From the NCBI GenBank assembly GCA_900617105.1, contig UYFQ01000125.1:1-57028 (forward strand): 57,028 nt of DNA. The letters are read 5' to 3'. Under the pieces are notes generated by a model. It saw only the letters and a program-made list of their open reading frames with translations. It was not told where the DNA came from and did not search any database. The translations under genes were made by a program, and so were the position numbers. How positions within the stretch are numbered: position 1 is the stretch's first letter; each line of letters opens with the position of its first letter. This document shows positions 1 through 57,028 of this stretch, piece after piece. Origin of the DNA: Hydrurus foetidus. Taxonomy: Eukaryota.

Positions 1-320
1 GTTGGAGTATCCGGAGAAAAGACACTGCTGTAGTTGTATAGTATATGCGTGGATCCCGACGGTCAGCGGTGTGTGCCCTGGGGGTGCAGATCGTGGACCG
101 TTGGATGTGTGGGCTCATGGAGCCATCCATTCATCTATCTTCAACACGGATAGAACATGTGCAATTGCGTTGATATGTAAAGCTTCGTTGCCGTCTTGAT
201 TGATGCCGGTGCACAAGTTTAATTATCAAGTAATTACACAGTACAAAGTCTATTTTACGAGCCTTGGGTCACCGGTCGCACGAGAGTCACAAAGCATCCG
301 GATTCAGAGAAATCCCAACA
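1..320 (+). repeat. 5' LTR, family A copy 1
   Basis: Matches 5115-5434 and 50296-50614; ends in CCCAACA. Confidence 0.95.
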
Positions 321-330
321 TAATTAAACT
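321..330 (+). promoter_or_regulatory. Primer-binding-site position of family A (TAATTAAACT), complementary to its own LTR
   Basis: Abuts the LTR and has no TGG. 320-330 (ATAATTAAACT) is the exact reverse complement of 216-226 (AGTTTAATTAT). Confidence 0.7.
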
Positions 331-346
331 AGATCAGCGCATCGAG

Positions 347-3300: not shown

Positions 3301-4971
3301 ACAGCAACCAGCACAACCAGTGCAGTCGCCTGTGAGAGAACAACGCAGGGTACCGGTACCAACAGAGCGTATGGTGACGAGGTCAACCCGTACGAACGAA
3401 GATGCGTTCGTGACGAACACAGGGGGTACAGTGCCGAGATCCGCCAACACAGCACCAACCACACATGATGTAGATGAGGTGATGAAGAGGCACAGAGAGG
3501 AGATGGGGAAGAGCAACACTGCCAACATAAGTGTTAAAGAAGCATTTCGCACCAGAGGACACGAAGCGAAGAAAGTCATCGTGTCGGAGCTCAGGCAGAT
3601 GATAGATAAAAGGGTATGGGCGCCGGTGATGGGTGGGAAACTAACGGCGATGCAGAGAGCATCGACCATTCGATCCTCGATGTTCCTCAAGCAGAAGAAC
3701 AACCCGGACGGGAGCTTCCTCAAGCTCAAGGCACGGCTGGTAGCAGGTGGCGACCAGCAAGACAAGGGGCTATATGAGGACCTGTCCTCTCCGACTGTGT
3801 CTACTAGTGCCGTATTCACGTTGCTTGCGGTCGCCGCTCATGAGAAGCGTCGAGTCGCAGTAGTAGATATCAGTGGAGCATACCTCAACGCGGACATGAC
3901 ACTGGACGTGCCAGTGCACATGCGCCTCGATCGCACTGTGACAAATGCGTATTCAACCGGACAGGCACGGACGGGCTTCAGAGCACTGCAGCAGTGCACG
4001 TCGACGACTTACTCATAACAAGTAGGAGCAAGGCCAACGTGACGCACCTAGTCGAGGGACTACGCAAGAGGTACGGTGCAATCACATTATCGCATGGTCC
4101 TGTCGTAAACTACCTCGGGATGTCGATCGACATGCATATATCAGGACAGGCGATGATCACAACCACGGGCTACTGTGACGAGATAGTCAAGATATCGGGG
4201 GTGAAGGGCTCTGCGCGTACACCGGCCACAGAGGGGCTATTCGAGACAAGAGAGGATGCCACCACAGTGATAGAGCCGGTGCGAGTCTGGTTCCACAAAG
4301 TGGTCGCAATGGTGCTCTACTTGGCTAAGCGTACCAAACCGGAGTGCCTAGTGACAGTGGCATTCCTAGCCACACGAGTCAACAAGTGCACGACAGACGA
4401 CGTGGACAAGCTACAGCGTTTGGTGCGTTACATATACGCGACAAGGGACAGCGGCGTATTGCTGAGGCCGGGTGCAGGAGGTATCACGGTGAGGCTATTC
4501 GTTGATGCGTCCTACGGTGTGCACAGCGATGGACGGTCACACACGGGAAGCTGCGTGGTAATTGGAGACGTCGGAGCTGTGCACTGTCGATCATCGAAGC
4601 AGCTGATAGTTACGAAGTCGAGTACGGAGGCCGAGCTGGTAGGGCTGTCCGACTCAGCTAACCAAGGCATATTCATTCGTACTTTTCTCATCGCACAGGG
4701 ATACGAGATGGAGCCGGTGGTCATCTATCAAGACAACCAGTCTTGCATGGCGCTAGTGGAGCGCGGCAGATCCGGGGCGGAGCGCACACGCCACATCCAG
4801 ATCCGATACTTCTGGGTTAAAGAGCGAGTGGACACTGGCGAGGTGCGGGTGGAGTACTTACGCAGCGAGGACATGTACGCGAACGTACTAACCAAGCCAC
4901 TCCAGGGGGCCCAGTTCCAGAGGGAGAGAGACGGACTCACGGGATGGCCCACGGTGGACGAGAAGAATTAA
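347..4971 (+). pseudogene. Family A gag-pol, frameshifted, with an internal RT deletion
   Basis: Start MPPKKQEE at 347; knuckle CFVCGKTGHFARDC; protease VLLDNQASVNIF; integrase LSVDIMY/SDGE/IERRI; RT KARLVAGG, VDISGAYL, HVDD; RNase H FVDAS, SSTEAE, QDNQ, ANVLTK. Split over ORFs 394-636, 633-1580, 1367-2785, 2692-3171, 3113-4018 and 3994-4971. Confidence 0.93.
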
Positions 4972-5114
4972 GGGTGCCAGCGAGGAAGACATCCCGCCAT
5001 TCGATAACATTTAGTTAGACATTACTGCTTGAAAAACAATTCACATCTATTTATTGCTGACATGAAAATCCAATGCGTGCCTGGGTGCTTCAACTACTGC
5101 GTGCCTGTTGGGTG

Positions 5115-5434
5115 TGTTGGAGTATCCGGAGAAAAGACACTGCTGTAGTTGTATAAGTATATGCGTGGATCCCGACGGTCAGCGGTGTGTGCCCTTGGGG
5201 TGCAGATCGTGGACCGTTGGATGTGTGGGCTCATGGAGCCATCCATTCATCTATCTTCAACACGGATAGAACATGTGCAATTGCGTTGATATGTAAAGCT
5301 TCGTTGCCGTCTTGATTGATGCCGGTGCACAAGTTTAATTATCAAGTAATTACACAGTACAAAGTCTATTTTACGAGCCTTGGGTCACCGGTCACAGGAG
5401 TCACAAAGCATCCGGGCCTAGAGAAATCCCAACA
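5115..5434 (+). repeat. 3' LTR, family A copy 1
   Basis: TGTTGGAGTATCC...CCCAACA; a few substitutions and indels versus the 5' LTR, mostly near its 3' end. Confidence 0.95.
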
Positions 5435-32489: not shown

Positions 32490-35400
32490 TTATAAAACTC
32501 GTCCTATGACAGTAGCAGTGCAAAGGACTCTAGATGCAGGATCTTTCGAATCTTTAGTGGCGTCTCTAAGATATATCGAAAATGGAACGATTCTATCCTT
32601 TTTCACTACTTCACTGCTCTGTGCCTTGCCTTCTCCTTCTCCTACCACCTCCGCATTATCTCCTTTACTCTGACTATCACCCTCCTTCCCCACTCTCCCT
32701 CTACTCCCCGCAGGTCTGGGATCAAAGCAAGCAATGCCTTCGTCATTCACATGAAAAGACGCGTCTCTCTCAATCTGTTTCCACGCCTTGGACGCTTTAT
32801 TAACGGAATCGGTAGGTTTAGCCGCATATCCGGGAAAAGAAATCATCGAGCCTAGAGGGACTTCTGATGGCGCGTAGACTGGCGAGAACTTGGATCAAAT
32901 GTGCGGAATTAAACAGTTAGGTAGAGGAATAAGTGATGAGGTTACATGTGACTTTGTTTTACTTGATGAGGTTACATGTGACTTTGTTTTACTTGATGAG
33001 GTTACATGTGACTTTGTTTTACTTGATGAGGTTACATGTGACTTTGTTTTACTTGATGAGGTTACATGTGACTTTGTTTTACTTGATGAGGTTACATGTG
33101 ACTTTGTTTTACTTGATGAGATTACATATGACTTTGTTTTACTTGATGAGGTTACATGTGATGTGATGTGATGTGGATTGAATAAGGGAGTTGTCAAGAG
33201 AAAAGCAGCGCAAGAGATCTAGCAACTAGTACATCAAGAAGAAGGATACGTCATGTACTAGTGATGAACCTGAGCTCTCTCCAGACAATTTGTTGTAACA
33301 TGAGAACAATAGCATGTAAAGTCTTCCAACATGACATCGTTTCTTTTCATCATTATTCTCTCATCGACAATTTTCGCGTAATTATGACAGGACAAACATG
33401 ACAGATAGTAGAATACAAACAATGTAACGCAGTTTAGTTCATCTTTTAACACTTGATAAGAACTACAACTCTTATGTACGTTACAAATGCTGTAACTCAC
33501 GACTGACGCACAATGATTAATGAGATAGTACGTATGCGTATTTACTATTTACCTTGTCGGTTTCATCTGTGCTGAAAAGAAGCATGACGCTGGATGCAAC
33601 ACCAAAGAACGCTCTTTCCTTCAAATTACACAGGACCACCATGTTACGGCCAATTAGGCCGTCCATACCAGAACTATTTCCGGCTATCATTCTTTGAGCT
33701 GTAACTGCCGTCCTAAAAAGAGAACAAGGAAAATGCATTCAGTACTGGTGAATCATGTTCAAATTGAGTGGAGGGATAGTGGTAGTGATATAGGTGTAGG
33801 TAGTGCTTGCAGTAATAACGGATGTACATGATTTCTAAAACTGTCTAGTAACGGAAGAAACACTTCGTGTGAGACACTGATCAACATGAACAATCACAAA
33901 ACATCACATCAAACAGTACACGGCAAAACTGAACAAGAAAATATAAGTAGAAATATAAGCAGATGTACAATGCAAATGCATCGAGAGATGGTTGATCTGC
34001 AGTACCTCATGATTCCGTCACTGGATCCAAGGTCCACCACGGTCACCACTAGATTGAGGGCGGTCGGGTCCGGGTGGGGCCCCACTGACACGACCTTGCC
34101 CACTCGCAGCTAGGAGTGACATGTGATAGAGTAGCAGCGGTAGGGTGCAGGTGTTACGAACAGTTTTATATTTTATAGATTTGACGTCAATATCAAATAC
34201 TATAAAAGTGACAATCAAATTCAAAATAAATATCAAAGTAAGTAAGAATATCAATCACAATAAGTATTAATAAAAATATCACATCATATACGAGAGTTTG
34301 CGTGATAAAAAAGGCTGTGTAATCACTTTCAGTACTATTTGTTTGAGTCCTCACACTCAACCCATATCAGCACTACATCATTTGAGTGTTTTTGCGAATT
34401 GTTTTCACTCATTTTTCGCACCAAACGGATTGGGTAGCGTGCAGTAACGGTTAAGTTGAGTGCACAAAAGACAAGAAGTCGTTCGAAAAGCGAAAAGTGT
34501 GTGAAAGTGAGGTTACAAAAATACTCTGATATTCTTTTCCTTCCTCACCTCTAACAGCGGGAGGGCAAGTTCACTGAGAGTTATACCGGAAGACGTACGG
34601 CCAACAGCTCTCCCTCTGGGATTGGATCCGACTGGCCGGGTAAGTCTACTGGCACTCCTACCACTGTCTCTGTTGCTGTCACTGCTGCCTTCAAGATTAG
34701 AAGGGGCACTGTCCGTGCTCTTGTCCATAACGTCCCTTTCTGCACTTCCCTCTCCCTCTCCTAGTCCTTCTTCATCACCCTCTCCTTCACTCTCCCCTCC
34801 ATCTTCACCCTCACCATCTACTGACGCTGTTCTCGTTCCTCTCGGGCCAGCCCCTCCCATTTCCCATGAAGATTCGTCAGATCTGCTCGATCTAGACCCT
34901 CCCTGTTCGTTGTCCCTTGCAGGCCCTCTACCTCTCACTGATTGTTTAGATGCTGATCCTTGTAACAATTCAAACTCCATCAATCTGCTGTGCGACATGA
35001 GCAGCAACGCATCAACAGCCTCTTCTGCGCTATCAGATGCCCACAGTGCTTCAGCTATAGCTAGATGGCATTCTGACGCTTCGCATCTCAAAAGTCTCTC
35101 TAGTGGCATGTCTAGTAATTTATTACGATGTTCAACTGGTTCCCCTCTCCCAGACAACAATCCCACCTTAATCAAGGTGTCATCAATAGATCTCGAGTTC
35201 TGAATTAAAGGGACTTGGCGTGATAAGTCTCTGAAATGCTCTTCAGGTAGAGGACGGTAGCGGCAGAAGAATTCAAAATGCCAAGGTAAGAAATAAAAGG
35301 TGTGTCTTTTTCCGTGATCATCCGATCCGAAGTGGTCTTTAAAATGCACAGAAAGTTCCCAGTATATAGCAATTCTTTCTTCTGCTGTAGGATACCAGCT

Positions 35401-36417: not shown

Positions 36418-36522
36418 CAGAAAGTTATCAAATTCTTCGAAATGGGCCGCCTCCTTGCAAAAATACCTTGCGTCTCCATCAGTACAACCAGAACTTCTAA
36501 CGAAGGTGGTGACAGCGGAGAC

Positions 36523-36813
36523 TGTCGGGATTCGGCGGTAATCCAGAAACGGAAAACGGTAGAAACAGAATTGGTTTTTAAGTTTACCGAGTGAAAGATT
36601 GTGATTGTGGAATGGAAACGATGAGGTGAATCGAGTGGAATGAATGCAATTGAAATGGACAATGTGTAGCTGTTGGAGAACTGGTCGCGACCAGTTCTCT
36701 TCTGAACTGCTTCAACGTGGAAAGATCGGATCGTCATCGTGCCGTTGGGACCGCTCGGTTGTTCGGTGAGCATTGTGTTGTGTGTTTGTGTTTGAAATGA
36801 CAATGCAATGACA
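36523..36813 (-). repeat. 3' LTR, family B
   Basis: Same sequence as 41844-42134. Confidence 0.97.
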
Positions 36814-36902: not shown

Positions 36903-39900
36903 TTACAATGATGAGTGAGGGTTGTGTGAAGTAGTTGGAGTGTTGAGTAGTTTGCTGCGGAACCATAAGAATTTGGAGGGGGTGAGGCTTTTGGTGAGTC
37001 CATCGGCAATCATGTCGTGAGTACCTATGTGTTGGGGGACAATCTCTTTGGTTTTGTAAAGCCAGCGTATGTAGTGTGATTTGAGGGCGATGTGGCGGGA
37101 CTTGCGGGTGATCTGGTGTGCGGTGGTCAGATTGATGGCTGGTTGGTTATCTTCGAGGATAACTGTTGGAGATATTTGGGGGAAGCCTAGATCTGCTGCA
37201 AACTGTCGGAAGAATTTGACATCTTTCGCGCATCTTCCGAGGGCGAGATACTCGGCTTCGCAGGGGCTGAGGGCGATGCCGGAAGTTTCAGCGGAAGAGT
37301 GGACGGCGAATGGAGCGTTGGTCGTGCCGATCTGGATAGTGTACGCAGAGTGAGAGTGTCCGTCCGGATGGCATGCGTGGGATGAGTCAGCGGCAGCGAG
37401 GATAGTGACTCCGGATGGAAATGAGGATGGGTTGGCGGAGAAAGTAGGGCCGATGTGGGGGCAGCCTTTGAGATATCGGAGGAGGTGGATTTGTTTTGAA
37501 AGGTCGGATTGGGTTGGGGAAGTGTTTCGAGTGCATAGGTGGACAACTTCTTTTCTGATATCGTGTCGAATGGAAAGTAGGAATATGAGAGTGCCGTTGA
37601 TGCGTAAGAAGCGGGTGCGGTCTACTGGGGTAAGGTCGGATGGGGGTCGAAGAAGTTTGCGGTGGATGGTGTAAGTGCGGGGGGACGAGGTCCATGCCAG
37701 ATTGATGTAAGAACTTAATGATGTGGGCGCCTTGGTCGAGAGTACATGAGTGGTCAGCGTTACGTGTTAGACGGACTCCGCAGACACCTGTCGAAGCATC
37801 ATTGAAGGCTATGGGTCCGTAGCGTCCTGTAAGGATGGTTTTGAGTTCATCGCGTAGTGTACGGGAGCAAGTGACGTACCATCCATCGTCGACATGCATG
37901 TTGAGGGTCAGTGAGTCGGCGGGGTTGTCGGGACATTTCTTATAAAAGCTGTGGTGGTCAGAGGGTGTTGGGTGAAAGCCAGCAGATGTTAGGAGGTTGA
38001 TGAGGTCTTTGTCATATTCGTGGTTGGCTTGCTTTATACCATAGCAACAGCCAGTGATTTCTGCGAGCTTGTTGGCGAGGGGACTTGGGAGGTCGGCCGG
38101 GAGGATCGCGATTAGCTGGTGGCCGTTGGTCATCTCGCGTGTGAGCTTGTTGTGGAGGAAGGCGCCTGGAAAATCGAAGTCTCCAAGAAGGAGCTGGTCG
38201 AGGCAGTTACGGTGTGCAGCATCGGCGAGGTAGGAGCTGAGGATGAAGGCACGATTGGTTGTGTCGGAGGTTCCTGCGTATGTATCGTTGTAGGATTCAC
38301 GTGGTTGGCGGCTACCGTCGATGGCGAGGCGAGCAGTGACAATGCCGTTGGATTTCTTCTTGATCAGCATTTGACTACGTAGGAAGATGGCTTTGGATTC
38401 GACACTGGAACGAGGAATGAGTTGAAGGGACTGGTAGGTGTCAAAATGTTTTCCCAGTTCCTTTGCTATTCCTGCAGCAATGTCGGAGGCAGGTAGGAGC
38501 TGCGAGGCTTTACGTATGGACATTTCAGCACGTTGGGGGGTAAGCGGTTGGGGTTCAAGGAGCGTGTGTCGATTGTTGAGGGGAATTGTTGGAGGATTGT
38601 CTATACGGTGCTGGCGATTGCGAGCTGCGGCGAGTTTAGCATTGTCGAGTTTACGTTGGGCAGCGTTGATGTACGCGGAGGGAGGGGGTAAAGGAGGTGG
38701 GACCAGTGTCGAGGGTAGAGAATAACAGCCTCGCCAGAAGTTGGTGGAATGGGATGAAGGATGGGGTGGAGGGATGGATGAGGAAGGAAATGGAAGGAAT
38801 GGAAGGAATGGATGGGGGGGGGGAATGGAAGGGATGGGGTGGAAGGATGGGGTGGTGGTGGATGGGGGACGGAGGAATGGGGTGGGTGGACGGAATGGTG
38901 GAGGGTGGATGGGAAGGATGAGGATGGACAACGGGGGAGAAGGGATGTGACCTGTCACTGTGGCGATGGCTTCAGTGTGAGGTGTATCAGGGAGTTGAAT
39001 TACAATGTTTGGTGATGGTTGGGTTGATGTCTCTGCGGTTGGAGGGGGTGTTTGTGTGGTTGGAGTTGTTGGAAGGGGTGTTTGTGCGGTTGGAGTTGAA
39101 GGGGGAAGGGGAACGTTGGGGACGAATGGTTTTGGGCTCCAGTTGAAGGGAACGAAGTGACGGGGGAAGGGAGCGGTTGGGCGGCGGGGCACGATTGCAC
39201 CGTTTGCAAGAAGGAAGAGTGTACGGCCGGTGAGAAGATCAGGAGCCATGCATACTCCAAGTTCGGCCTTGGGTTCGGCGTTTGCAGCGGTATGGTTAGC
39301 TCTAGCCAGGGCGTGGCGCTTATCTGTATGTTGAGTTACCATGCAGCAGGAGCCGAATGGGAAGGGGTGGCGGGTGGGTTTGTGGCCGTGGAGGAGTTCA
39401 TTGGGGGTAGATGGAGAACTACGTACGTTGATGAGGGTGTTCCGCGTAGCAGCTATGGCCTTGTGTAGGTAGAGAGTATACTTTAGTGGGAGGTGGTAGG
39501 AGAGGCCTGAGAGGGTGGCGGTTGTAAGCTGCCGGAGGGTGAGGATGGAGCGCTCAACGCGTGCGGCGTGTTCTCCAGGGGGGGAGAGCTGAAGGGAGAT
39601 TCCGAGGGATCCAAGTGGTGCAGCGAGGGAAGTGTTGATCTTCTCACAGTCGCCGTGAAGGGTGTGAACGCGATGGTGATGTGCATTGTACGTGGTGGCG
39701 ATAATGTGGTGTAGGGCTTTGAAGACAGCCGGAGTGGATTTGGATGAGGCACCAACGACGGAGAGGTGGCCAGTGAACTCGTCTACTATGATGATTTCAT
39801 GGGTGTGTAGGCCTGGGGAGGGCTCTGGGAGGAGCTGGGGGTCGAAGCTGAGGACGGCTCCAAGTGAGGTGGCGGGGGCGCTAGTGGAGGGGGGATGGGA

Positions 39901-40646
39901 GGGACTGCGGTGTTTACCAGCGGTGCAGTGGGGGCAAGGGCCGCGGAGTTGGCGGTTAAGGGTGACATCGGAGCAGGTTAAGGTGCTGAAAGGGAGCTTG
40001 CCGGTGGAGAGGTTGACACAGAGGCTGCGATCGGAGGGGTGGCAAAGTTCAATGTGGAGGTCTTCAGCAGCATCAGCGCGAGAGCGCTGCTCAGAGTTGA
40101 TATGGGGTACAGCATGCATGAGGGGTAGGAGGGTAGGCTGCTCTGCGGTAGTATGGGGTACGAGGGAATGCGCGGCCATTGGGGGTGATAGTATGAGAGG
40201 GGTTGATTGATGAAGCGTGGAGGAGGGCGGCGAAGTCTACAGGGGTGGGCTAAGAGGGGTCCTGAGGGGGAGGAGCGGATAGTGACGTGACTAAGGGGGC
40301 GAAGGGGGTCAGGTCCATATGTAGCACCGCAGCGTTGCATTTGGCCCAGGCTGAAGAGGTTAACGGGTAGTGTCGGAGAAAAGTAGGCAGAGTTCATAGC
40401 GTTGGTGGTGGGGAGGCAGAGGAGGCGGCCGCGATGGGTGACCGAGCAGGAGCCGCCGACACCTCCGATGGAGAAGGTGTGAGGGAGTGGAGCAAGATCG
40501 TAGAGTAGGGAGGCATCATTGACAGTGTGGAAGGAGCAGGCGTTATCCCAGTAGGACTGATGGTGGTTGAGTGAGGTTGGTGTACTGGAGGAAGCGAGGG
40601 CGAGTGGACGGGAGAAAAGTGCAAGGGAGGTCGTGGGGGCTGGTAG
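36903..40646 (-). pseudogene. Family B pol (PR-INT-RT-RNase H), several frameshifts as assembled
   Basis: Protease YWDNACSFHTVN; integrase H..H..CPHC, LSFDP, HGDCE, VERSI; RT TARLAIDGS, FDFPGAFL, CYGIKQA, HVDD; RNase H SPCEAEY, LEDNQ, IADGLTK; stop at 36905-36903. Confidence 0.9.
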
Positions 40647-41828
40647 TCAGGCGGAGTCCGAGGCGTCGGAGGCGTGGTCGAGTTGGCTAAGGAGTGCTCG
40701 GAGGCGTTGAGAGGTATTGGACGGTGTGGGGGAGGTAAATGGTGGCGGCGGAGGGTGGGGAAGTCGGTTGGGGTTCTTGGAACAGTAGGCGGACAGATGG
40801 CCGAAGCGTTGGACTTTGTCGGCGGAAAGGCACCATGTGCAGTGGGTAGGGTGAAGGTGAGGTTTAGGGGTAGAGTCTTTCTTACCGTTTGCAAGACGTG
40901 GACGGGGGGAAGTCGCTGAGGCTTTGGAGGCGATGAGTGCGGAGCCTTGGGAGGAGACGTCGTCGCGTGCGAAGGAGAGTGAGTTTGCGATCTTCCAGCT
41001 CTGCAGTTGGGACATAAGAGCTGTGGGATCTGGGAACCGTCCGGTTGGATGGTTGTGGAGGAGCTCATCAAGGGCGCGGCGGAACTCGTTGCGGTTGAGT
41101 CCTGCGAGGTAAAGGAAGCTAGTTAATTCAGGTATAGATACAAAGCCCGGGTGAACCGCGGACTCGAAGTCGAGCTTGAATGTTTCAGTCATAGTGGTTA
41201 TTAGTTCAATGTAGGATTCATGTGGCAAGTCGGATTGTGAAACATTGACATAAAGGCGGGTGCGATGGAGTTTGGTGGCGGCATTCCCGATGGAGTGAAT
41301 GTCGCGGACCATGACATAGAAGGGATAGCTCCGAGAGCCGATGGGTTGAAGTTGGTAGGTAGGGTAGTTGGGGTGGGTTTTGACTGCGGTGTGGGAGGCC
41401 AAGGAAATATGTCGGTAGAGATGGTCGAGGCAGTCTGTGTCCTCGTCGGAGAACCGACGCTGTGCTGCCGAGAAGATCTTTTTGTCATCTCTAAAGTTGG
41501 TATTGCCGAGGGTGCTGAGGGGAAGAGTGGCGGGATCGAAGTTGGGTTGAGCGGCTTCGGCGTCGGTGGCTTGTCGGCGCTGATAAGTTAAGAGACCTGG
41601 AGTGGGAGCTCCAGTGAGGTCGGCCTCGAGGTCGGCCTTTGTTGGCTCGATTGGAAAGGGTTGGAGCGGGATGGTGGTGTCGGAGAGGATTTGCTGCCCA
41701 GCGACACCAAATTTGGTGAAGCAGAGGAGCTTCAAGGCTTGATGCCACTGCGACCAGTTGTCTGAGTGGAGGTCCAGCATTGGATGTTGAGCAGTGGAAG
41801 TGGCAGCGGCTGTGGATGTGGAGAGCAT
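40647..41828 (-). CDS. Family B gag (393 aa)
   Basis: ATG starts 2 nt after the PBS; LDLHSDNWSQW gag-like N-terminus; CX2CX10HX4C knuckle; ends at a TGA in frame with protease. Confidence 0.88.
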   Translation of the reverse strand: MLSTSTAAATSTAQHPMLDLHSDNWSQWHQALKLLCFTKFGVAGQQILSDTTIPLQPFPIEPTKADLEADLTGAPTPGLLTYQRRQATDAEAAQPNFDPATLPLSTLGNTNFRDDKKIFSAAQRRFSDEDTDCLDHLYRHISLASHTAVKTHPNYPTYQLQPIGSRSYPFYVMVRDIHSIGNAATKLHRTRLYVNVSQSDLPHESYIELITTMTETFKLDFESAVHPGFVSIPELTSFLYLAGLNRNEFRRALDELLHNHPTGRFPDPTALMSQLQSWKIANSLSFARDDVSSQGSALIASKASATSPRPRLANGKKDSTPKPHLHPTHCTWCLSADKVQRFGHLSAYCSKNPNRLPHPPPPPFTSPTPSNTSQRLRALLSQLDHASDASDSA

Positions 41829-41830
41829 TG

Positions 41831-41843
41831 CTTAAAAACCAAT
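41831..41843 (-). promoter_or_regulatory. Primer-binding-site position of family B (ATTGGTTTTTAAG), complementary to its own LTR
   Basis: Plus strand 41831-41844 CTTAAAAACCAATT is the exact reverse complement of 41890-41903 AATTGGTTTTTAAG. Confidence 0.75.
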
Positions 41844-42134
41844 TGTCGGGATTCGGCGGTAATCCAGAAACGGAAAACGGTAGAAACAGAATTGGTTTTT
41901 AAGTTTACCGAGTGAAAGATTGTGATTGTGGAATGGAAACGATGAGGTGAATCGAGTGGAATGAATGCAATTGAAATGGACAATGTGTAGCTGTTGGAGA
42001 ACTGGTCGCGACCAGTTCTCTTCTGAACTGCTTCAACGTGGAAAGATCGGATCGTCATCGTGCCGTTGGGACCGCTCGGTTGTTCGGTGAGCATTGTGTT
42101 GTGTGTTTGTGTTTGAAATGACAATGCAATGACA
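41844..42134 (-). repeat. 5' LTR, family B
   Basis: Same sequence as 36523-36813; flanked by TSD GAGAC. Confidence 0.97.
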
Positions 42135-43007
42135 GAGACAGCAGAGTCTCAGCGGCTAAAAAAAGCGGGACACGGTAGTACACAGTGAACGATGATTTAT
42201 CAGTGATTTATCCGATTTCGTTGAGTTTTCGCTGCGGTATGGTACAGTATCTGGTATCTAGGGTACTGTATGACCTGTAAATCAATATCAACGGTGTAGA
42301 CGAACGATTGCACGGAGGCATGAATCGACTGAGAATAGATCGGCTGACTATCCCGTCTGAATTAGATAGACCTAGAAATGATATGATAAGAATCCGGAGG
42401 ATTGAAACAACCCTCATAAATTAATAAGTGTGCAGCGTACAGTCAATCACGAGGTGGTTAAAACGACCCCATGAAAGTGTTGGATTCTCAAAGCCTGAAT
42501 GCCAAATTATTGACAGTCAGAATTGATAGGTTAGAGATCTTTGCAGACTGGATCAAAGTTGATGATCATCATCGGCTACTATAAATTTAAGCTCTTTAAT
42601 TATCCGAAAAACCTGCCACTTTGACACTGTCTCAAATCCAATCGCCTCTGGTACAATATTTAATTCAAGTGTCCAAAAGTACGGTAATGTTTCAACATGG
42701 CGTTGAAGACGTATTGTGTACTTTTTATTGCATAAAAATCAAAGCTGTACTTGACAAATATCGGATATCTAGTTTGAATCGTCTGAAAGGCTTGTCTAAA
42801 CTACAATGTCTACGATCAACAAATACTCTCACTTTTGTTTCGTATTGTTGCTTTTCGAGATTAATGTATGTATTACCGCGCGTGACGATTAGTAACTAAA
42901 AGGTCTGGTATTACGCTCCGTATCAAAACGGTGCCCAACTTAACATTCCGGCTTTCAACACTATGGATTTGGTTGACTGTAACTGCTGTAGGTGTTGCGT
43001 CCTGAAG

Positions 43008-46970: not shown

Positions 46971-49900
46971 TCATGCAGACAGGAGTGATGACTCAGCGAC
47001 AACATTAAGTAGCCACTGCTTCAATTGATTGTCCTCCATCTTCGTCATACGGGAGGCATCTATGCGGCGCACAACCACTCCTCTGGACTTTAAGTACGCA
47101 TCTCGCAGCTTGCAGAAATTGATCTTCTTCTCCTGCCTGTGGTGTATGCCGTCCACCTCGATATTGATCACTAGCCATTTGCCTTCAGACGATGCTTCGG
47201 CTTCATCGGTCTTACCAAAGAATGGTATACGAACTACAATGTCACTCTCGAACATATCGAACAAGTACTCGTTGCTAGATACCGTTACTCTAGTCTGTCC
47301 CAATATCTCTACGGCGGCATGATGCATCCTCTTCTCTACCTTTGATGTAAAGTCATCCATGTATTCGCCCTTTGTCATCCTGCGGCGATGCTCGCTACAG
47401 ACCGAGTCAGAGAATTTCGTCCACAACTCATAATTAGTGTCATCAAGAACGTCACGCCTAAAGGGAATGCACAGTAGCACTGCTTGACCGACACTCAACA
47501 AGTCAAGTCTGCTCATGCGATTCACCTCTGTTAAAGCCATTGTGTGGCGTAGAAGAACAGCCAATATTCCAACGCAAAGACGACTGCTCATACTCTGCAT
47601 GCCGTACAATGCGTTGCCTACTGCCTGAGCGTCGAGTGACTCCTTGCAGCTGTGCACCTTATCCGACAGAGCTGATATCATCGATCGCACTTCCACATGA
47701 TCACTGCTCATACTCTGCATGCCGTACAATGCGTTGCCTACTGCCTGAGCGCTCAGTGACTCCTTGCAGCTGTGCACCTTACCCAACAGAGCTGATATCA
47801 TCGATCGCACTTCCACATGATCACTGCTCATACTCTGCATGCCGTACAATGCGTTGCCTACTGCCTGAGCGCTCAGTGACTCCTTGCAGCTGTGCACCTT
47901 ATCCGACAGAGCTGATATCATCGATCGCACTTCCACATGATCACTGCTCATACTCTGCATGCCGTACAATGCGTTGCCTACTGCCTGAGCGTCGAGTGAC
48001 TCCTTGCAGCTGTGCACCTTACTCAACAGAGCTGATATCATCGATCGCACTTCCACGTGATCACTGCTCATACACTGCATGCCGTACAATGCATTGCCTA
48101 CATTCTGAGCGCTAAGTGACTCCTTACAGCTGTGCACCTTACCCAGCAGTGCTGATATCATCGACCGCACTTCCACATGATCACTGCTCATACACTGCAT
48201 GCCGTACAATGCATTGCCCACTGCCTGAGCGCTAAGTGACTCCTTACAGCTGTGCACCTTACCCGACAGTGCTGATATCATCGACCGCACTTCCACATGA
48301 TCACTGCTCATACTCTGCATGCCGTACAATGCGTTGCCTACATTCTGAGCGTCGAGTGACTCCTTGCAGCTGTGCACCTTACTCAACAGAGCTGATATCA
48401 TCGATCGCACTTCCACATGATCACTGCTCATACTCTGCATGCCGTACAATGCGTTGCCTACTGCCTGAGCGCTCAGTGACTCCTTGCAGCTGTGCACCTT
48501 ACTCAACAGAGCTGATATCATCGATCGCACTTCCACATGATCACTGCTCATACTCTGCATGCCGTACAATGCGTTGCCTACTGCCTGAGCACTCAGTGAC
48601 TCCTTGCAGCTGTGCACCTTATCCGACAGAGCTGATATCATCGATCGCACTTCCACATGATCACTGCTCATACTCTGCATGCCGTACAATGCGTTGCCTA
48701 CTGCCTGAGCGCTCAGTGACTCCTTGCAGCTGTGCACCTTACCCAACAGAGCTGATATCATCGATCGCACTTCCACATGATCACTGCTCATACTCTGCAT
48801 GCCGTACAATGCGTTGCCTACATTCTGAGCGTCGAGTGACTCCTTGCAGCTGTGCACCTTACTCAACAGAGCTGATATCATCGATCGCACTTCCACATGA
48901 TCACTGCTCATACTCTGCATGCCGTACAATGCGTTGCCTACTGCCTGAGCGCTCAGTGACTCCTTGCAGCTGTGCACCTTATCCGACAGAGCTGATATCA
49001 TCGATCGCACTTCCACATGATCACTGCTCATACTCTGCATGCCGTACAATGCGTTGCCTACATTCTGAGCGTCGAGTGACTCCTTGCAGCTGTGCACCTT
49101 ACTCAACAGAGCTGATATCATCGATCGCACTTCCACATGATCACTGCTCATACTCTGCATGCCGTACAATGCGTTGCCTACATTCTGAGCTCTCAGTGAC
49201 TCCTTGCAGCTGTGCACCTTATCCGACAGAGCTGATATCATCGATCGCACTTCCACATGATCACTGCTCATACTCTGCATGCCGTACAATGCGTTGCCTA
49301 CTGCCTGAGCTCTCAGTGACTCCTTGCAGCTGTGCACCTTACTCAACAGAGCTGATATCATCGATCGCACTTCCACATGATCACTGCTCATACTCTGCAT
49401 GCCGTACAATGCGTTGCCTACTGCCTGAGCACTCAGTGACTCCTTGCAGCTGTGCACCTTACTCAACAGAGCTGATATCATCGATCGCACTTCCACATGA
49501 TCACTGCTCATACTCTGCATGCCGTACAATGCGTTGCCTACTGCCTGAGCGTCGAGTGACTCTTGACATTTTTTTATCATGATTGTAATGCTGCCAAGTA
49601 GCTCTAATGATTGACGTGTTTTCAATTTGTTGTTCTGCAGTCCAAGCAGAGCCATCGATATTGAATGGGAAGGTACTGCCTCTCTGTTTTGAGTCGACTT
49701 TACCAGAGCTGCTGTCATTGAAGCCACAACAGCTAGATATCCATCGTCGTCCTCTACTAAGCACTGCAGACCATACAGAGTAGCAGAGATATCGATAGGT
49801 CTCCAAGAAGCCGATGATAGAATCTCAACCTGTGACGCAATAGCTGGCAGGTGACGTTTTAAATGAAAGTGGGATTTGTTCCCAGATGATTTCTTCCCTG

Positions 49901-50295: not shown

Positions 50296-51866
50296 TGTTG
50301 GAGTATCCGGAGAAAAGACATTGCTGCAGTTGTATAGTATATGCGTGGACCCCGACCGTCAGCGGTATGTGCCCTGGGGGTGCAGATCGTGGACCGTTGG
50401 ATGTTTGGGCTCATAGAGCCATTCATTCATCTATCTTCAACTTGGATAGAACCATGTGCAATTGCGTTGATATGTAAAGCTTCGTTGCCGTCTTGATTGA
50501 TGCCGGTGCACAAGTTTAATTATCAAGTAATACACACTACAAGTCTACTTTTACGAGCCTTGGGTCACCGGTCGCACAAGTCACAAAGCATCCGGGCTTC
50601 GAGAAATCCCAACATAATTAAACTAGATCAGCGCATCGAGATGCCGCCGAAGAAACAAGAAGAACCAAAGTCAGCTGCAGAGCAGTGCATGCTGAGAATC
50701 GGACGCTACAACAACATAGTGCAGTGGAGGGAAGACATGCAGAACGAGGCATGCGGCCTGTACGGTATGACAGGCACGTTCTTCACGACCAACGAGAGTT
50801 ACGTCCATCCGTATCCTCGAGAGGAGGATTACAATCCCACCTTTCAAACGGTGGAAATCGATACCACGACGCGGGTACCGAAAATGAAGACGAGGACGAC
50901 GACGAATCCGTGAACCTCGAAAATGTCGAGATCGGGCCACAGCTCCCACCAGCGCCTCCTGTAGTGTACTCCGAGGCACTAATCGACAGACTGCGAGCCA
51001 ATGCGTTTGAGGGACGCCGTAAGGCAGTTGAAACGCAAAAGCTCTTTCCGCTTATGTGGTCGAGAATGTCGACAGGGTCGAAGTCTAAGGTGCGAGAGGA
51101 GCCAGGCTTCGAACAGGCACGCCTAAGATTGGACAGTGTGAAACTGTGGGAGTACATCAGAAGGAGTCACCGAACACGCATTTATGGCGAGGATGACTCG
51201 ATGAGAGCAATGAATGTGCACGAGCAGACAAACAGGTACAACTACCTCAGACAGGGTGAGCGAGAGGTAATCGGCGACTTCAAGACGCGCTTTGATAACC
51301 AGGTATCGGCCAACAGAGGTGTGGGCATGGCAGATGTGGAAGAAGTGATTAGAGCAATCGACTTCCTCAGTAAGTTGGACCCAAAAAGGCATACCGATAT
51401 GTTGACACTGATGCGTAACAACGCTGTACAAAACCTGCCGAATAGCTTCCCTTCCACCTTAGCCGGAGCATACAGGGTGGCGTCATCCTGGACCAGCTCG
51501 GGCGGAGCAGTCCCCCTTTGCGCCGAGCAACATTCCGCGTTCCTGACAGATTCTTTGGTAGGCACAAAGGAAAAAGTCTCGGGAAAGGGAGCAAAGGGGA
51601 AGACTGCAGGAACGAAGAAGAAATCATCGTCAGTGATCTGTTTCGTATGCGGAAACACAGGACACTTCGCCAGAGATTGCGAACAACGCAAGGATTCGGA
51701 GCATGCGATGCTCACCAATGTCGAGGAGGACATCGAAAAAGATGACGAGAGCATAGGAGCAGCATTCGTCACGACAGACGAGTTCGCCCTGTTCACTCGC
51801 AGTCATGTGCTGCTAGATAACCAGGCGTCTGTAAACATATTTTGCAATCCGTCATTGCTGACGGAT
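50296..51866 (+). mobile_element. Family A copy 2, 3'-truncated (5' LTR 50296-50614, gag from 50641, ends inside protease)
   Basis: Closely matches 1-~1585; same PBS TAATTAAACT at 50615-50624; homology stops after VLLDNQASVNIFCNPSLLT. Confidence 0.95.
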
Positions 51867-54189
51867 TGCACGTACGTATGTACGTGTGTACGTGACCATA
51901 CAAGTGTACGCTATGCTACATGCGTGCGTACGTACGTACATATTGACCATGTACGTGCATGTGTAAGTACATGTGTGTGCGTATGCATATAATAATTTGT
52001 ACTAACATATGCACGTACGTATGTACGTGTGTACGTGACCATACAAGTGTACGCTATGCTACATGCGTGCGTGCGTACGTGCGTACGTACATATTGACTA
52101 TGTACATGTGTAAGTACATGTGTGTGCGTATGCATAAATGAGTATGCACTAACATGTGTAAGTACGTGTGTACGTGTGCATGTTATCATATCTGCATGTG
52201 TACTTACATACGTACGTGCCGCATAACGTACATGTATATATTTGTAACTATATTTGCAACTACATTACTACAGACATAGCTTGATAGAATCAAGTGGTCT
52301 GACACTCCCCGTAGTGAAGATGTAGTGTAAAATAATGCATGTTTACTTATGAGCTACCTTTATAATATTAGAATTAACATAGTATATGTGTGATCAAGAC
52401 AAATACAATATTAAAACATAATTAGTATAGTGCTCTTTAAAGATTTCGTCTCTGAGACTGATCTATAATTTGATTTAGAAGTTTATTAAATATTGGTTGA
52501 GAAACTCTTTTTGTACCAATATCTGAATTATTATCGCTTTAACAACTACGCAAGTACCATCAGCAACCTTCTCTTTGACCCAGTTTTCGGTGAGGTCGAG
52601 GTGCCGTAGGTTGCGTGTCATGTGTGCTGCCTTAGAATGGTATATACAGGCTTGGTTGTCTTCTTCAATAGAGGTTGGACCTTGGACCCATCCCATCATG
52701 TTTAGGATGCCTCTGTTGGCTATGACCTCTGCTTTGAGTGTGTGGTTGACAGCCTTGATTTCCGACTCTGCCGTTGATGTTGATATGCTGCCTTGGTCGG
52801 TGGAACACCAGCAGATAAGGTTACGGCCGAGGTATCCAAGATATGCAGTCTGGGAGTGGCTATTGTCGGGATTACCACCCAAATCTGCATCGCATTGAAA
52901 CCGGAGTTGGAGTAGCGTTGTCATAGTCTCGATGTCTCTGGGTCCATCGTGTCCATGGAACACTAGTCGATCACTTCGTGCGTACTTGCAGTACTGCAGT
53001 AAGTGTTTGAGGAATTTGATATGTCTGGGACCTGGGTTGTTACTATAACGGGACAGTACATTGAGTGCATACAGAATGCCGACCATGGTATGTACCATAC
53101 CGTGCATTAGTTGACCCACGACCCTCCTGTACGGGTACTTCATACACTGCATACGTTCCTCAGGGGTAGAAGCGTTGTCTAGTTTTGACAATGCAGGTTC
53201 TTGGTCCCCATTTGGGTATCGTAAGTGCATGTCCTTTGCACCAGATATATTAGCTTCTTTTATTATTGAACCAATCATGCGATGTTGATCCATATAATAT
53301 GTGCCATCTTCATCACGCTGAATACGAATACCAACGAACTCCTTGTCAGTTGCATCAGTGACTTCATACTTGTGTGCATTGAAGGTGGCGATGATCAGAT
53401 CCTATTCATCAAGTTTGTCCGAAGGACCAAACCATCTGAAGTCATCACTGTGACCAATGATAAGCATGGGTCTACCATCTGTGGTCCATTTAAAGAAGAA
53501 CTTGAGGTCCCAGGGTGTGTTCTTGTAACCACACTCGAAGATACAAATATCAAACTCAATGGAAAAGTTTTGCCCTGCAGGTGGGAATCCATAAAGATTG
53601 CCGACAGCCTGAAAGCAGAAACCGGGTGGGCAAGTGTATCCCTGCGGTGTCTTTATGTGCACCGGGAAGTTAACATTTGCTCTTGTAATGAGGTAAGCAC
53701 CAATGAGGTCACCTCCTTTCATTACTAGTCCATATGCTGCTGCAATGCTTAGTGCCATCTTGATGGAACACGATGATACATTTCCGCAGTATACGGCGTC
53801 GGGGTCGAAGTCCACGAGTGGTATCATCATATCTCCCCGTCCCACTAAACGGGCTTTTTTCGTACCGTCGGTTTTTATACTAAAAAGCCACATCATTGGT
53901 ACCAGGTGTTCGTCAATGTATGGTACTAATACATGTAAACATGAGTTCTTCTCGAATTTCTTTAATTCAGTATCTATTGCGTTTTTCCATTCAGGAGTAG
54001 CCATAGCTTTCCAGAATGATTTTGGCACATTTAGTTGATCGAAATTGATGAATATTTTTTCGTGATGACTTGCTTCAATCAATGAGAGAAAATGTTCGTG
54101 ATTTCTATCATGTGTAGAGTACCAGTAGACAGCATCGTCATTTTCAATGTTTTGAATTGGTGTATTAATACCAATGTCATTATCATCGA
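51867..54189 (-). mobile_element. Copia family C, older degenerate copy: RT-RNase H, PPT and truncated 3' LTR (51867-52304)
   Basis: Near-duplicate of 54933-57028. TGG>TAG stop at 53402-53404 and a 10-bp deletion near 52537. On the minus strand, PPT GGGGAG is followed by TGTCAGAC. Confidence 0.92.
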
Positions 54190-55233
54190 TGTAAGACTAA
54201 ATACAAGATGTCACCTTCTAGCGTTCGCAGCGAAGGTGAAGAAGCAGCTGCAGGCTACCGTTTCAATTCAGTGAGCTATCGAGTAGACGAAGCTGTGAAG
54301 TATAACGTATTAAATTCTGATTAGAGTTTACAGATAGCCACGCAAAAGAGCTATCGGAACAGTTCATGACAGTGAAACTACCTTGAGACAAAGTTCACAG
54401 CGAGATGTGTTGTTCATAGCATGTGCTTGAGGAACGTTGCATGAATGCTTATAGTAACGAAGTGTTTTGGCGATACTGAAGAATCATGAAAGGCGAACGT
54501 TCATTTGCGTGAGGTCAGAGGGTTCGTACTAACTGCTACATGGCGATAGTACAGGGGTACGTATGCGTGTATATGTATATGAACGTACATGCGTGATTAA
54601 CCACTATATGGCGATAATGCGGGTACATGTATGTAGAACGTATGGGTAAGTGCAAGAGTTATCCACGTATGTACACCTATATACATCTATGTACTACGCT
54701 ATTGGCGATCATTCATACGTACATATTAGGGCTATGGCATACGTAATGGCGGTACGTTGTGCGTAATGTGTATTTGTACTGGCTTGTATGCGTACATGTG
54801 CGTGTGCGTGACCATGCAAGTGTACGCTTTACGTGCGTATCTGCGTGCGTACGTGCGTACGTGAATAATGACGCATTACGTAATGTAGAATACAATGTGA
54901 TGCGTGTATATATAATAATTTGTACTAACATGTGCACGTACGTATGTACGTGTGAGCGTGACCATACAAGTGTACGCTATGCTACATGCGTGCGTGCGTG
55001 CAACGTACGTACATACATATGACTATGTACGTACATGTGTAAGTACATGTGTGTACGTATGCATAAATGAGTATGCACTAACATGTGTAAGTACGTGTGT
55101 ACGTGTGCATGTTATCATATCTGCATGTGTACTTACGTACGTACGTGCCGCATAACGTACATGTATATATTTGAAACTATATTTGCAACTATATTACTAC
55201 AGACATATCTTGATAGAATCAAGTGGTCTGACA
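54190..55233 (-). repeat. 3' LTR, family C, containing degenerate TACG/TGTA tandem repeats
   Basis: TG...CA ends with an imperfect terminal inverted repeat; its right part matches ~51990-52304. Confidence 0.85.
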
Positions 55234-55365
55234 CTCCCCGTAGTGAAGATGTAGTGTAAAATAATGCATGTTTACTTATGAGCTACCTTTATAATATTAG
55301 AATTAACATAGTATATGTGTGATCAAGACAAATACAATATTAAAACATAATTAGTATAGTGCTGT

Positions 55366-57028
55366 TTAAAGATTTCGTCTCTGAGACTGATCTATAATTT
55401 GATTTAGAAGTTTATTAAATATTGGTAGAGAAACTCTTTTTGTACCAATATCTGAATTATTATCGCACGATTTAACTTTAACAACTACGCAAGTACCATC
55501 AGCAACCTTCTCTTTGACCCAGTTTTCGGTGAGGTCGAGGTGCCTTAGGTTGCGTGTCATGTGTGCTGCCTTAGAATGGTATATACAGGCTTGGTTGTCT
55601 TCTTCAATAGAGGTTGGACCTTGGACCCATCCCATCATGTTTAGGATGCCTCTGTTGGCTATGACCTCTGCTTTGAGTGTGTGGTTGACAGCCTTGATTT
55701 CCGACTCTGCCGTTGATGTTGATATGCTGCCTTGGTCGGTGGAACACCAGCAGATAAGGTTACGGCCGAGGTATCCAAGGTATGCAGTCTGGGAGTGGCT
55801 ATTGTCGGGATTACCACCCAAATCTGCATCGCATTGAAACCGGAGTTGAAGTAGCGTTGTCATAGTCTCGATGTCTCTGGGTCCATCGTGTCCATGGAAC
55901 ACTAGTCGATCACTTCGTGCGTACTTGCAGTACTGCAATAAGTGTTTGAGGAATTTGATATGTCTGGGACCTGGGTTGTTACCATAACGGGATAGTACAT
56001 TGAGTGCATACAGAATGCCGACCATGGTATGTACCATACCGTACATTAGTTGACCCACGACCCTCCTGTACGGGTACTTCATACACTGCATACGTTCCTC
56101 AGGGGTAGAAGCGTTGTCTAGTTTTGACAATGCAGGTTCTTGGTCCCCAGTTGGGTATGGTAAGTGCATGTCCTTTGCACCAGATATATTAGCCTCTTTT
56201 ATTATTGAATCAATCATGCGATGTTGATCCATATAATATGTGCCATCTTCATCACGCTGAATACGAATACCAACGAACTCCTTGTCAGTTGCATCAGTGA
56301 CTTCATACTTGTGTGCATTGAAGGTGGCGATGATCAGATCCCATTCATCAAGTTTGTCCGAAGGACCAAACCATCTGAAGTCATCACTGTGAGCGATGAT
56401 AAGCATGGGTCTACCATCTGTGGTCCATTTAAAGAAGAACTTGAGGTCCCAGGGTGTGTTCTTGTAACCACACTCGAAGATACAAATATCAAACTCTATG
56501 GAAAAGTTTTGCCCTGCAGGTGGGAATCCATAAAGATTGCCGACAGCCTGAAAGCAGAAACCGGGTGGGCAAGTGTATCCCTGCGGTGTCTTTATGTGCA
56601 CCGGGAAGTTAACATTTGCTCTTGTAATGAGGTAAGCACCAATGAGGTCACCTCCTTTCATTACTAGTCCATATGCTGCTGCAATGCTTAGTGCCATCTT
56701 GATGGAACACGATGATACATTTCCGCAGTATACGGCGTCGGGGTCGAAGTCCACGAGTGGTATCATCATATCTCCCCGTCCCACTAAACGGGCCTTTTTC
56801 GTACCGTCGGTTTTTATACTAAAAAGCCACATCATTGGTACCAGGTGTTGGTCAATGTATGGTACTACATGTAAACATGAGTTCTTCTCGAATTTCTTTA
56901 ATTCAGTATCTATTGCGTTTTTCCATTCAGGTATAGCCATAGCTTTCCAGAATGATTTTGGCACATTGAGTTGATCGAAATTGATGAAGAGTTTTTCGTG
57001 ATGACTTGCTTCAATCAATAGAGAAAAT
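55366..57028 (-). CDS. Family C pol, RT-RNase H portion (5'-partial, intact frame)
   Basis: KKARLVGRGD, GDLIGAYL, NLYGFPPAG, HSDD, YPYRRVVGQL, CDADLGG, STAESE, EEDN, SDIGTK. Confidence 0.93.
   Translation of the reverse strand, partial: FSLLIEASHHEKLFINFDQLNVPKSFWKAMAIPEWKNAIDTELKKFEKNSCLHVVPYIDQHLVPMMWLFSIKTDGTKKARLVGRGDMMIPLVDFDPDAVYCGNVSSCSIKMALSIAAAYGLVMKGGDLIGAYLITRANVNFPVHIKTPQGYTCPPGFCFQAVGNLYGFPPAGQNFSIEFDICIFECGYKNTPWDLKFFFKWTTDGRPMLIIAHSDDFRWFGPSDKLDEWDLIIATFNAHKYEVTDATDKEFVGIRIQRDEDGTYYMDQHRMIDSIIKEANISGAKDMHLPYPTGDQEPALSKLDNASTPEERMQCMKYPYRRVVGQLMYGMVHTMVGILYALNVLSRYGNNPGPRHIKFLKHLLQYCKYARSDRLVFHGHDGPRDIETMTTLLQLRFQCDADLGGNPDNSHSQTAYLGYLGRNLICWCSTDQGSISTSTAESEIKAVNHTLKAEVIANRGILNMMGWVQGPTSIEEDNQACIYHSKAAHMTRNLRHLDLTENWVKEKVADGTCVVVKVKSCDNNSDIGTKRVSLPIFNKLLNQIIDQSQRRNL

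Follow-up and report, generated by a model that had tools for sequence, protein, structure and literature searches.

Introduction

The arrangement in which gag and pol of a retrotransposon lie in one reading frame, separated by a single UGA, is already known from yeasts. Tj1, Tcry1 and Tosmo1-3, which are Ty3/gypsy elements of the Tf1/sushi group from fission yeasts, are described as having a conserved GAA-TGA-CT sequence at the gag-pol junction (PMC10085805), and Tj1 is reported to lose its activity without the stop (PMC4600332). Among the copia elements, Tca2 (pCal) of Candida albicans has gag, UGA and pol in one frame and expresses pol from the gag-pol RNA (PMC2194720, PMC7175516). According to these reports, a 300-nt segment around the Tca2 stop was not read through in S. 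cerevisiae (PMC2194720), and the mechanism of stop bypass is still regarded as open (PMC7175516).

Type II readthrough is defined by the hexanucleotides UGACUA or UGACGG (PMC13517186). In Ustilago reporters, UGA followed by CU is reported to be sufficient for readthrough, which is lowered when the stop is UAG or UAA, and Trp, Arg, Cys or Ser are listed as the residues inserted at UGA (PMC4207609). The description of UGA-CUA as a leaky context in the initial annotation of the locus studied here is in line with this experimental leakiness of UGA-CU.

Here we analyse a Ty1/copia LTR retrotransposon located on the minus strand (42134-36523) of a 57,028-nt stretch of DNA, hereafter the window, whose gag terminates at UGA-CUA. 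From sequence comparison, we infer with a probability of roughly three in four that context-driven, type II readthrough of this stop sets the ratio of Gag to Pol without local RNA structure, and the rate of readthrough and the inserted residue are part of the same inference.

Results

The two 291-nt LTRs of the element, with TG...CA ends, are 100% identical and, together with the 5-bp GTCTC target-site duplication, point to a recent insertion, in agreement with its initial description as very young (Table 1). The domain order, protease, integrase, reverse transcriptase and RNase H, is that of copia elements. A Pol_BBD match is followed by an RVT_2 match (Pfam), the latter with an E value of 0.0011 in the window and 7.7e-6 in the relative P0081, both under the curated cut-offs, while the integrase between them has no Pfam match and was assigned by eye from its motifs. 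RNase H ends in ADGLTK, fitting the ADxxTK motif at the end of copia RNase H (PMC5445492). On the other side of the 3' LTR (36523-36417, minus strand), a dihydrouridine-synthase gene (Dus, PF01207) has its first in-frame ATG about 106 nt downstream of the element, and the LTR may affect the expression of this gene.

The first ORF can be identified as gag by the capsid fold of its product. An AlphaFold2 model built from 104 homologues has a pLDDT of 88 and matches best the Drosophila Copia capsid (8vvw_A; Z 12.0, rmsd 8.2, 178 aligned residues). All seven structures with Z of at least 8 are retroelement capsids or Gag-derived proteins, with PEG10, MOAP1, PNMA2 and Ty1-derived capsid domains following Copia. 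A Foldseek search with the model gave no match at E 0.001, and no Pfam family was found for the window Gag, with three weak member matches among the 104 homologues. Downstream of the zinc knuckle, Gag ends in a conserved two-helix hairpin (40760-40650, minus strand; residues 371-407 of the relative P0083) with pLDDT above 80, and distant Gag relatives likewise have amphipathic helical tails.

Table 1. Features of the copia element and its gag-pol junction, in the order of the sense strand (window coordinates).
Feature	Position	Strand	Basis or remark
Target-site duplication, upstream copy (GTCTC, 5 bp)	42135..42139	-	sequence
5' LTR, 291 nt, TG...CA	41844..42134	-	100% identity to 3' LTR
Candidate self-primer, 14-nt LTR segment	41890..41903	-	exact reverse complement of primer-binding position
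Putative primer-binding position directly past 5' LTR	41831..41844	-	pairs with LTR segment over 14 nt
gag ORF, ATG 41828 to TGA, 393 aa	40647..41828	-	capsid fold like Copia capsid
In-phase intron candidate, disfavoured	40640..40885	-	donor-like GTAAG at 40885, CAG ending 40640
CCHC-type zinc knuckle, C-x2-C-x10-H-x4-C	40782..40841	-	C330, C333, H344 and C349 present in 90% or more of 104 sequences
TGA stop and CTA, type II readthrough hexanucleotide UGACUA	40644..40649	-	sequence; class as defined in PMC13517186
Spacer from stop to protease, 31 codons	40554..40646	-	no ATG in any frame; PLAL motif common with relatives
Protease domain (YWDNACSFH)	40326..40553	-	Asp at 40547-40545; first in-frame ATG at 40397
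Integrase and reverse-transcriptase frame	37387..40236	-	split from protease frame in window copy by 31 missing nt
End of reverse transcriptase and RNase H frame (ADGLTK)	36903..37766	-	split in window copy by 2 missing nt near 37641-37680
3' LTR	36523..36813	-	repeat comparison
Target-site duplication, downstream copy, 5 bp	36518..36522	-

As initially annotated, the minus strand reads GCC TGA CTA CCA at the end of gag, with the TGA at 40649-40647, and no further stop interrupts the frame over the next 222 codons (39978-40646), which include LPAPTTSL...YWDNACSFHTVN. Codons 32-107 after the stop match Pol_BBD with an E value of 6.6e-5 and 23.6 bits, under the curated threshold of 27. TGACTA is found once among the 45 TGA triplets on the sense strand of the element; CTA makes up 21 of its 1618 codons (1.3%) and CTN 10.7%, and it is unlikely that CTA follows the stop by chance. 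As in type II readthrough, the coding sequence downstream is in frame, conserved and devoid of a start of its own.

The protease active-site motif is usually Asp-Ser/Thr-Gly. Both copia elements of the window have Asp-Asn instead, as DNA here (40547-40539, minus strand) and as DNQ in a second element described below (about 1550, plus strand), and DNAC is common to all three relatives that include the active-site motif. Since the stretch between the stop and the catalytic Asp is free of ATG in all three frames, a Pol with an active protease must originate upstream of the stop or by a non-standard route. In eight of 13 Pol records the start coincides with the Met at 40397, downstream of the Asp, or lies immediately ahead of this Met, and three records include the Asp. 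The three records that contain the spacer have PLAL and YWDNACSFH in common with the window, implying that the spacer is translated.

One such non-standard route would be a Pol made separately, either from an internal promoter, as from the minor junction promoter of Tca2, or from a non-AUG start in the spacer. One near-cognate ACG lies in frame as the fifth codon past the stop, and the weak junction promoter of Tca2 is documented (PMC2194720). However, besides the missing ATG, the corresponding codon of the diverged relative P0143 reads A-[AG]-C (spacer positions are perhaps not homologous), and a separate Pol needs no spacer in the gag frame, yet this frame is kept in three diverged relatives. 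Free Pol would also need another route into the particle, according to the Tca2 work (PMC2194720). We therefore regard separate synthesis as quite unlikely and readthrough as the better account of the open spacer.

The window copy is damaged, so that the stop had to be judged against other copies. We compared the window with contigs of six runs from six studies, one of which is possibly the source sample; such contigs drop rare variants. Near 40670, a few codons upstream of the stop, 60 nt (20 codons) are missing relative to P0083 and P0086, two intact members of the same cluster whose Gag has 413 aa as compared with 393 aa in the window; the codons GAC TCC GCC ahead of the stop are untouched by this loss. 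About 240 nt are missing from the proline-rich linker. Relative to near-identical contigs, the window also lacks 31 nt (26+1+4) between protease and integrase near 40181-40240, and 2 nt (1+1) near 37641-37680, and these two losses exactly explain both frame changes in pol. ORF 40397-39978, named in the initial annotation, is consequently an artefact of the 31-nt loss. In intact relatives the frame continues into integrase, reverse transcriptase and RNase H: P0074 covers protease and integrase without a break, and in P0081 a single Pol of 1177 aa is preserved.

The second copia element is a different one (40-5400, plus strand, with a partial copy near 50336-51325), having 245-nt repeats that are 99% identical, a classical CCHC knuckle and several frameshifts, one of them just ahead of the protease motif. 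The host ORFs in the window appear intact, unlike both copia elements. The defects likely come from uncorrected long-read errors in repeats, and real decay is possible. Other repeats of the window comprise 17 copies of a 120-nt unit at 47463-49682, open on the minus strand as a 40-aa repeat (AQAVGNALYGMQSM motif), a 30-nt tandem array of at least seven copies at 32904-33191, and a tandem duplication of about 2.9 kb with 96-100% identity at 52099-57019.

A search for Gag homologues of 216-688 aa gave 68 matches, of which the full-length ones are 53-97% identical; lengths of 689-734 aa fall outside both this search and that for longer proteins. The C-terminal helix is reached by 53 of the 68, and 51 of these end at the same column or one residue past it. 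By a motif test, 50 were scored as ending there, 48 of them four residues after a conserved aromatic and two one residue later; P0057, which stops at the same column by eye, raises the count to 51. Ala is the final residue in 44/50, and 39/50 finish with DTA or DSA. The exceptions are P0065 (a cluster of three), which is about 17 aa longer and then ends, and P0067, with a frameshift-like tail. In P0071 a Gag-end-like SDYQES is in frame with the protease with no stop between. P0065 and P0071 look degenerate.

A profile search extended the family to 315 cluster representatives (50% identity clusters) at E of at most 0.001. The best 150 include 72 new representatives of at least 300 aa, of which 55 have a scorable knuckle and end 44-113 aa after it, where some ends could be contig ends and a stop is indistinguishable from a frameshift in distant families. 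In sixteen the knuckle could not be scored, and one, P0220 with 1004 aa, extends further. P0220, a gene model from Mallomonas annulata, is also the only one of 222 Gag-like proteins that matches the protease profile; it is devoid of the catalytic motif and of most of the integrase and reverse transcriptase, and looks like a spliced gene prediction. The protein search for longer Gag homologues found no fused Gag-Pol proteins, which is weak evidence.

We also considered whether the TGA arose by chance, as a nonsense mutation or an assembly error in a dead copy of a single-ORF element. The deletions of 60, 26, 4, 1, 1 and 1 nt and of about 240 nt agree with such a view, as does the frameshifted state of the second copia element. 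However, these deletions are missing from the other copies, whereas the stop is present in 51/53 homologues and in contigs of several studies. Chance decay is accordingly the least probable reading and is excluded, unless the gene calls of the homologues are wrong. On these alignments the stop is best taken as an inherited family trait.

The contigs allow the junction to be examined at the DNA level. A sense codon in place of the TGA, which had been named as the observation that would speak against readthrough, was not found in the contigs from six studies. Near-identical contigs that span the stop differ from the window at two (X1), four (X7), three (X15) and three (X10) other letters (four studies); the two differences of X1 presumably correspond to the Tyr/Ala codon beside the deletion in the window. 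None of the 40 best-supported of 250 difference rows falls within 40631-40722, although a change in a contig of low depth may have escaped notice. The conservation of TGACTA, initially proposed as a check, thus holds among near-identical contigs, whereas the more diverged relatives are only compatible with it (T-N-A C-N-A).

In these relatives the spacer changes by whole codons. The alignment with a second subfamily, about 87% alike, extends to 40654 and shows a 3-nt indel in the spacer; the spacer indels in two diverged subfamilies are of 3 nt. Three runs contain a more diverged contig; it aligns over 26 nt at 40633-40658 but not in its flanks, and its offset at the same junction is 93 nt, i.e. 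31 whole codons. Single-base indels in the spacer occur in one degenerate contig, from X12. The translation P0143 shifts to the -1 frame a little upstream of the end of Gag; it comes from a relative about 60% identical, whose nearest homologue is P0042 (57% identity to the window Gag). At the stop, back-calculation yields T-N-A, followed by C-N-A, C-N-A and C-N-C, which permits TGA, TAA, TTA or TCA at the stop and then any C-N-A codon. Its protease motif lies 47 codons past the stop in the gag frame, as compared with 32 in the window, making the spacer 15 codons longer and supporting variation of its length in whole codons.

P0143 also bears on splicing. If an in-phase intron between the donor-like G|GTAAGA at 40885 and the CAG that ends at 40640 were removed inefficiently, the stop would be lost and the capsid fused to the protease spacer, leaving out the zinc knuckle. 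Of the 27 GT sites that gag contains ahead of the stop, this donor is the sole GTAAG; its phase matches that of the first AG beyond the stop, and it is kept in two loci of a bacterial metagenome-assembled genome (MAG), L001 and L002 (86% identical DNA). Host GT-AG introns have C-rich 3' ends, one of which, by eye, ends in CTGACAG. However, the phase match is a 1-in-3 event and unremarkable, and the donor shows no sign of conservation in the protein sequences: GK is present in 7/54 linkers, and donor-compatible [GSRC]K in 31/54 as compared with 29.8 +/- 3.5 in shuffles. At the acceptor, P0143 forces A-C rather than A-G, and this lack of the downstream AG counts against splicing. The 40640-40885 joint is not among the joints listed (15 of 24), and a second contig set left too little sequence on one side. 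Splicing is therefore unlikely in our view, and readthrough remains the preferred explanation.

Scans for the junction DNA in metagenome contigs and viral contigs found nothing, and among genome contigs two loci were found in one bacterial MAG record; one of them, L002, breaks off about 10 nt short of the stop, and the MAG gave no match to the protease. Five of its contigs (G001, loci L001-L007) contain pieces of the retrotransposon family that are 64-98% identical, and they are likely algal contamination of the bin. Environmental DNA matching the element comes from freshwater, sediment and air metagenomes, and the sole named distant Gag homologue is from Mallomonas annulata. Taken together, these sources make a chrysophyte-type alga the likely host, i.e. 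the copia lineage likely belongs to chrysophytes or freshwater golden algae.

The signal at the stop seems to be devoid of local structure. The stem-loop suggested downstream was not borne out: the 150 nt from the stop fold to -8 kcal/mol as compared with -14.1 +/- 2.9 kcal/mol for shuffled sequences, which is weaker than all 200 shuffles (z +2.06). Structured windows were absent from the first 300 nt after the stop, where windows of 40-300 nt gave z values of +0.7 to +1.6, and the best long-range partner for the first 45 nt reached -23.1 kcal/mol as compared with -22.2 +/- 2.2 kcal/mol for shuffles. The folding covers nested structures and not pseudoknots, and the stretch after the stop is G-poor.

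Stramenopiles use selenocysteine, and the codon here is UGA, so that a dedicated recoding deserves consideration, whether as selenocysteine, as A-to-I editing to a Trp codon, or as a host code that reads UGA as sense. Against the first, the one SECIS-like pattern in the element lies inside gag and does not fold, and Rfam gave 0 matches at E values up to 1; against editing, the unstructured junction offers no double-stranded substrate. A UGA-sense code disagrees with six host ORF ends, which are TAA (four), TAG and TGA, and with the use of TGG in five of these ORFs. Moreover, the fixed column at which Gag ends fits true termination. We consider a dedicated recoding very unlikely, in contrast to context-driven readthrough.

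As regards priming, the longest match between the primer site and the LTR is 14 nt, and none of 2000 shuffles reached 12 nt. This single 14-nt match suggests that the copia element of the window may prime on its own LTR. Single bases are lost from the A run of the LTR (41896) in some contigs and from the matching T run (41834) in some; L001 has a shorter A run and its primer site is deleted. Self-priming is known for Tf1/sushi elements and has been predicted for the copia TAR lineage, Houba and Osr-1 (PMC6317226).

Discussion

The claim of programmed readthrough made in the initial annotation is supported by our analysis, because both the position of the stop and the frame beyond it are conserved, and neither another start nor a conserved splice route was found. 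In the proposed mechanism, most ribosomes would stop at the UGA and release a Gag of about 410 aa, comprising the capsid, the zinc knuckle and the C-terminal helical hairpin. A small minority would instead incorporate a near-cognate residue and proceed into one protease-integrase-reverse transcriptase-RNase H frame, and the outcome would be the excess of Gag that is needed for particle assembly. It is likely that the primary context suffices as the signal, as it does for fungal UGA-CU, perhaps with help from distant sequence.

We found no description of readthrough in an algal copia element, or of a chrysophyte copia lineage, in the literature searched, which included few subscription papers. 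The large copia lineage with separate gag ORFs, likely of chrysophytes, is thus apparently undescribed. It is possible, though on balance doubtful, that the whole chrysophyte-type lineage (315 Gag clusters) uses bare UGA-CUA readthrough, with at least the window family self-priming, and has thereby converged with Tj1 and Tosmo. Readthrough in the window family would extend UGA-CU readthrough to stramenopile translation. General principles are unchanged, since the layout has been published for yeasts. A copia family with UGA-CUA, many variants and no local structure offers a clean test of minimal-context readthrough in copia elements. There is also a practical consequence: automatic annotation will treat young elements of this kind as broken and place the start of Pol past the protease active site, as in 8 of the 13 Pol records.

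MuLV gag-pol readthrough is of type III, with UAG-G and an H-type pseudoknot. The initial comparison with gammaretroviruses therefore chose the wrong class, the element having TGA-C without nested structure, although the purpose, Gag in excess of Gag-Pol, would be the same. The identical UGACUA is reported for Sindbis virus and other type II viruses, alongside UGA-CU readthrough in fungi and animals (PMC13517186, PMC4207609). Several type II viruses are described as having extended 3' stem-loops; the window element has none, resembling the minimal Ustilago signal.

Among retrotransposons, Tca2 is similar in being a copia element with an in-frame UGA between gag and pol. After its stop, a purine-rich spacer of 8 nt and a predicted pseudoknot are described, whereas in the window element CUA and the pyrimidine-rich, unstructured CTACCAGC follow. 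Tf1/sushi elements and, by prediction, the TAR lineage may be similar in another respect, as their primer-binding position is described as complementary to their own LTR instead of a tRNA. A further likeness in layout is that to Tj1, Tcry1 and Tosmo1-3, which, as described, have a single in-frame TGA followed by CT (CTA or CTG) and a Pol without its own AUG; Tj1 also self-primes, as the window element may. However, these are Ty3/gypsy chromoviruses with GAA before the stop, whereas the window element belongs to Ty1/copia and has GCC there (Ala in most relatives). Since the group, the host and the codon before the stop all differ, the match with the Tj1 and Tosmo elements is likely convergent.
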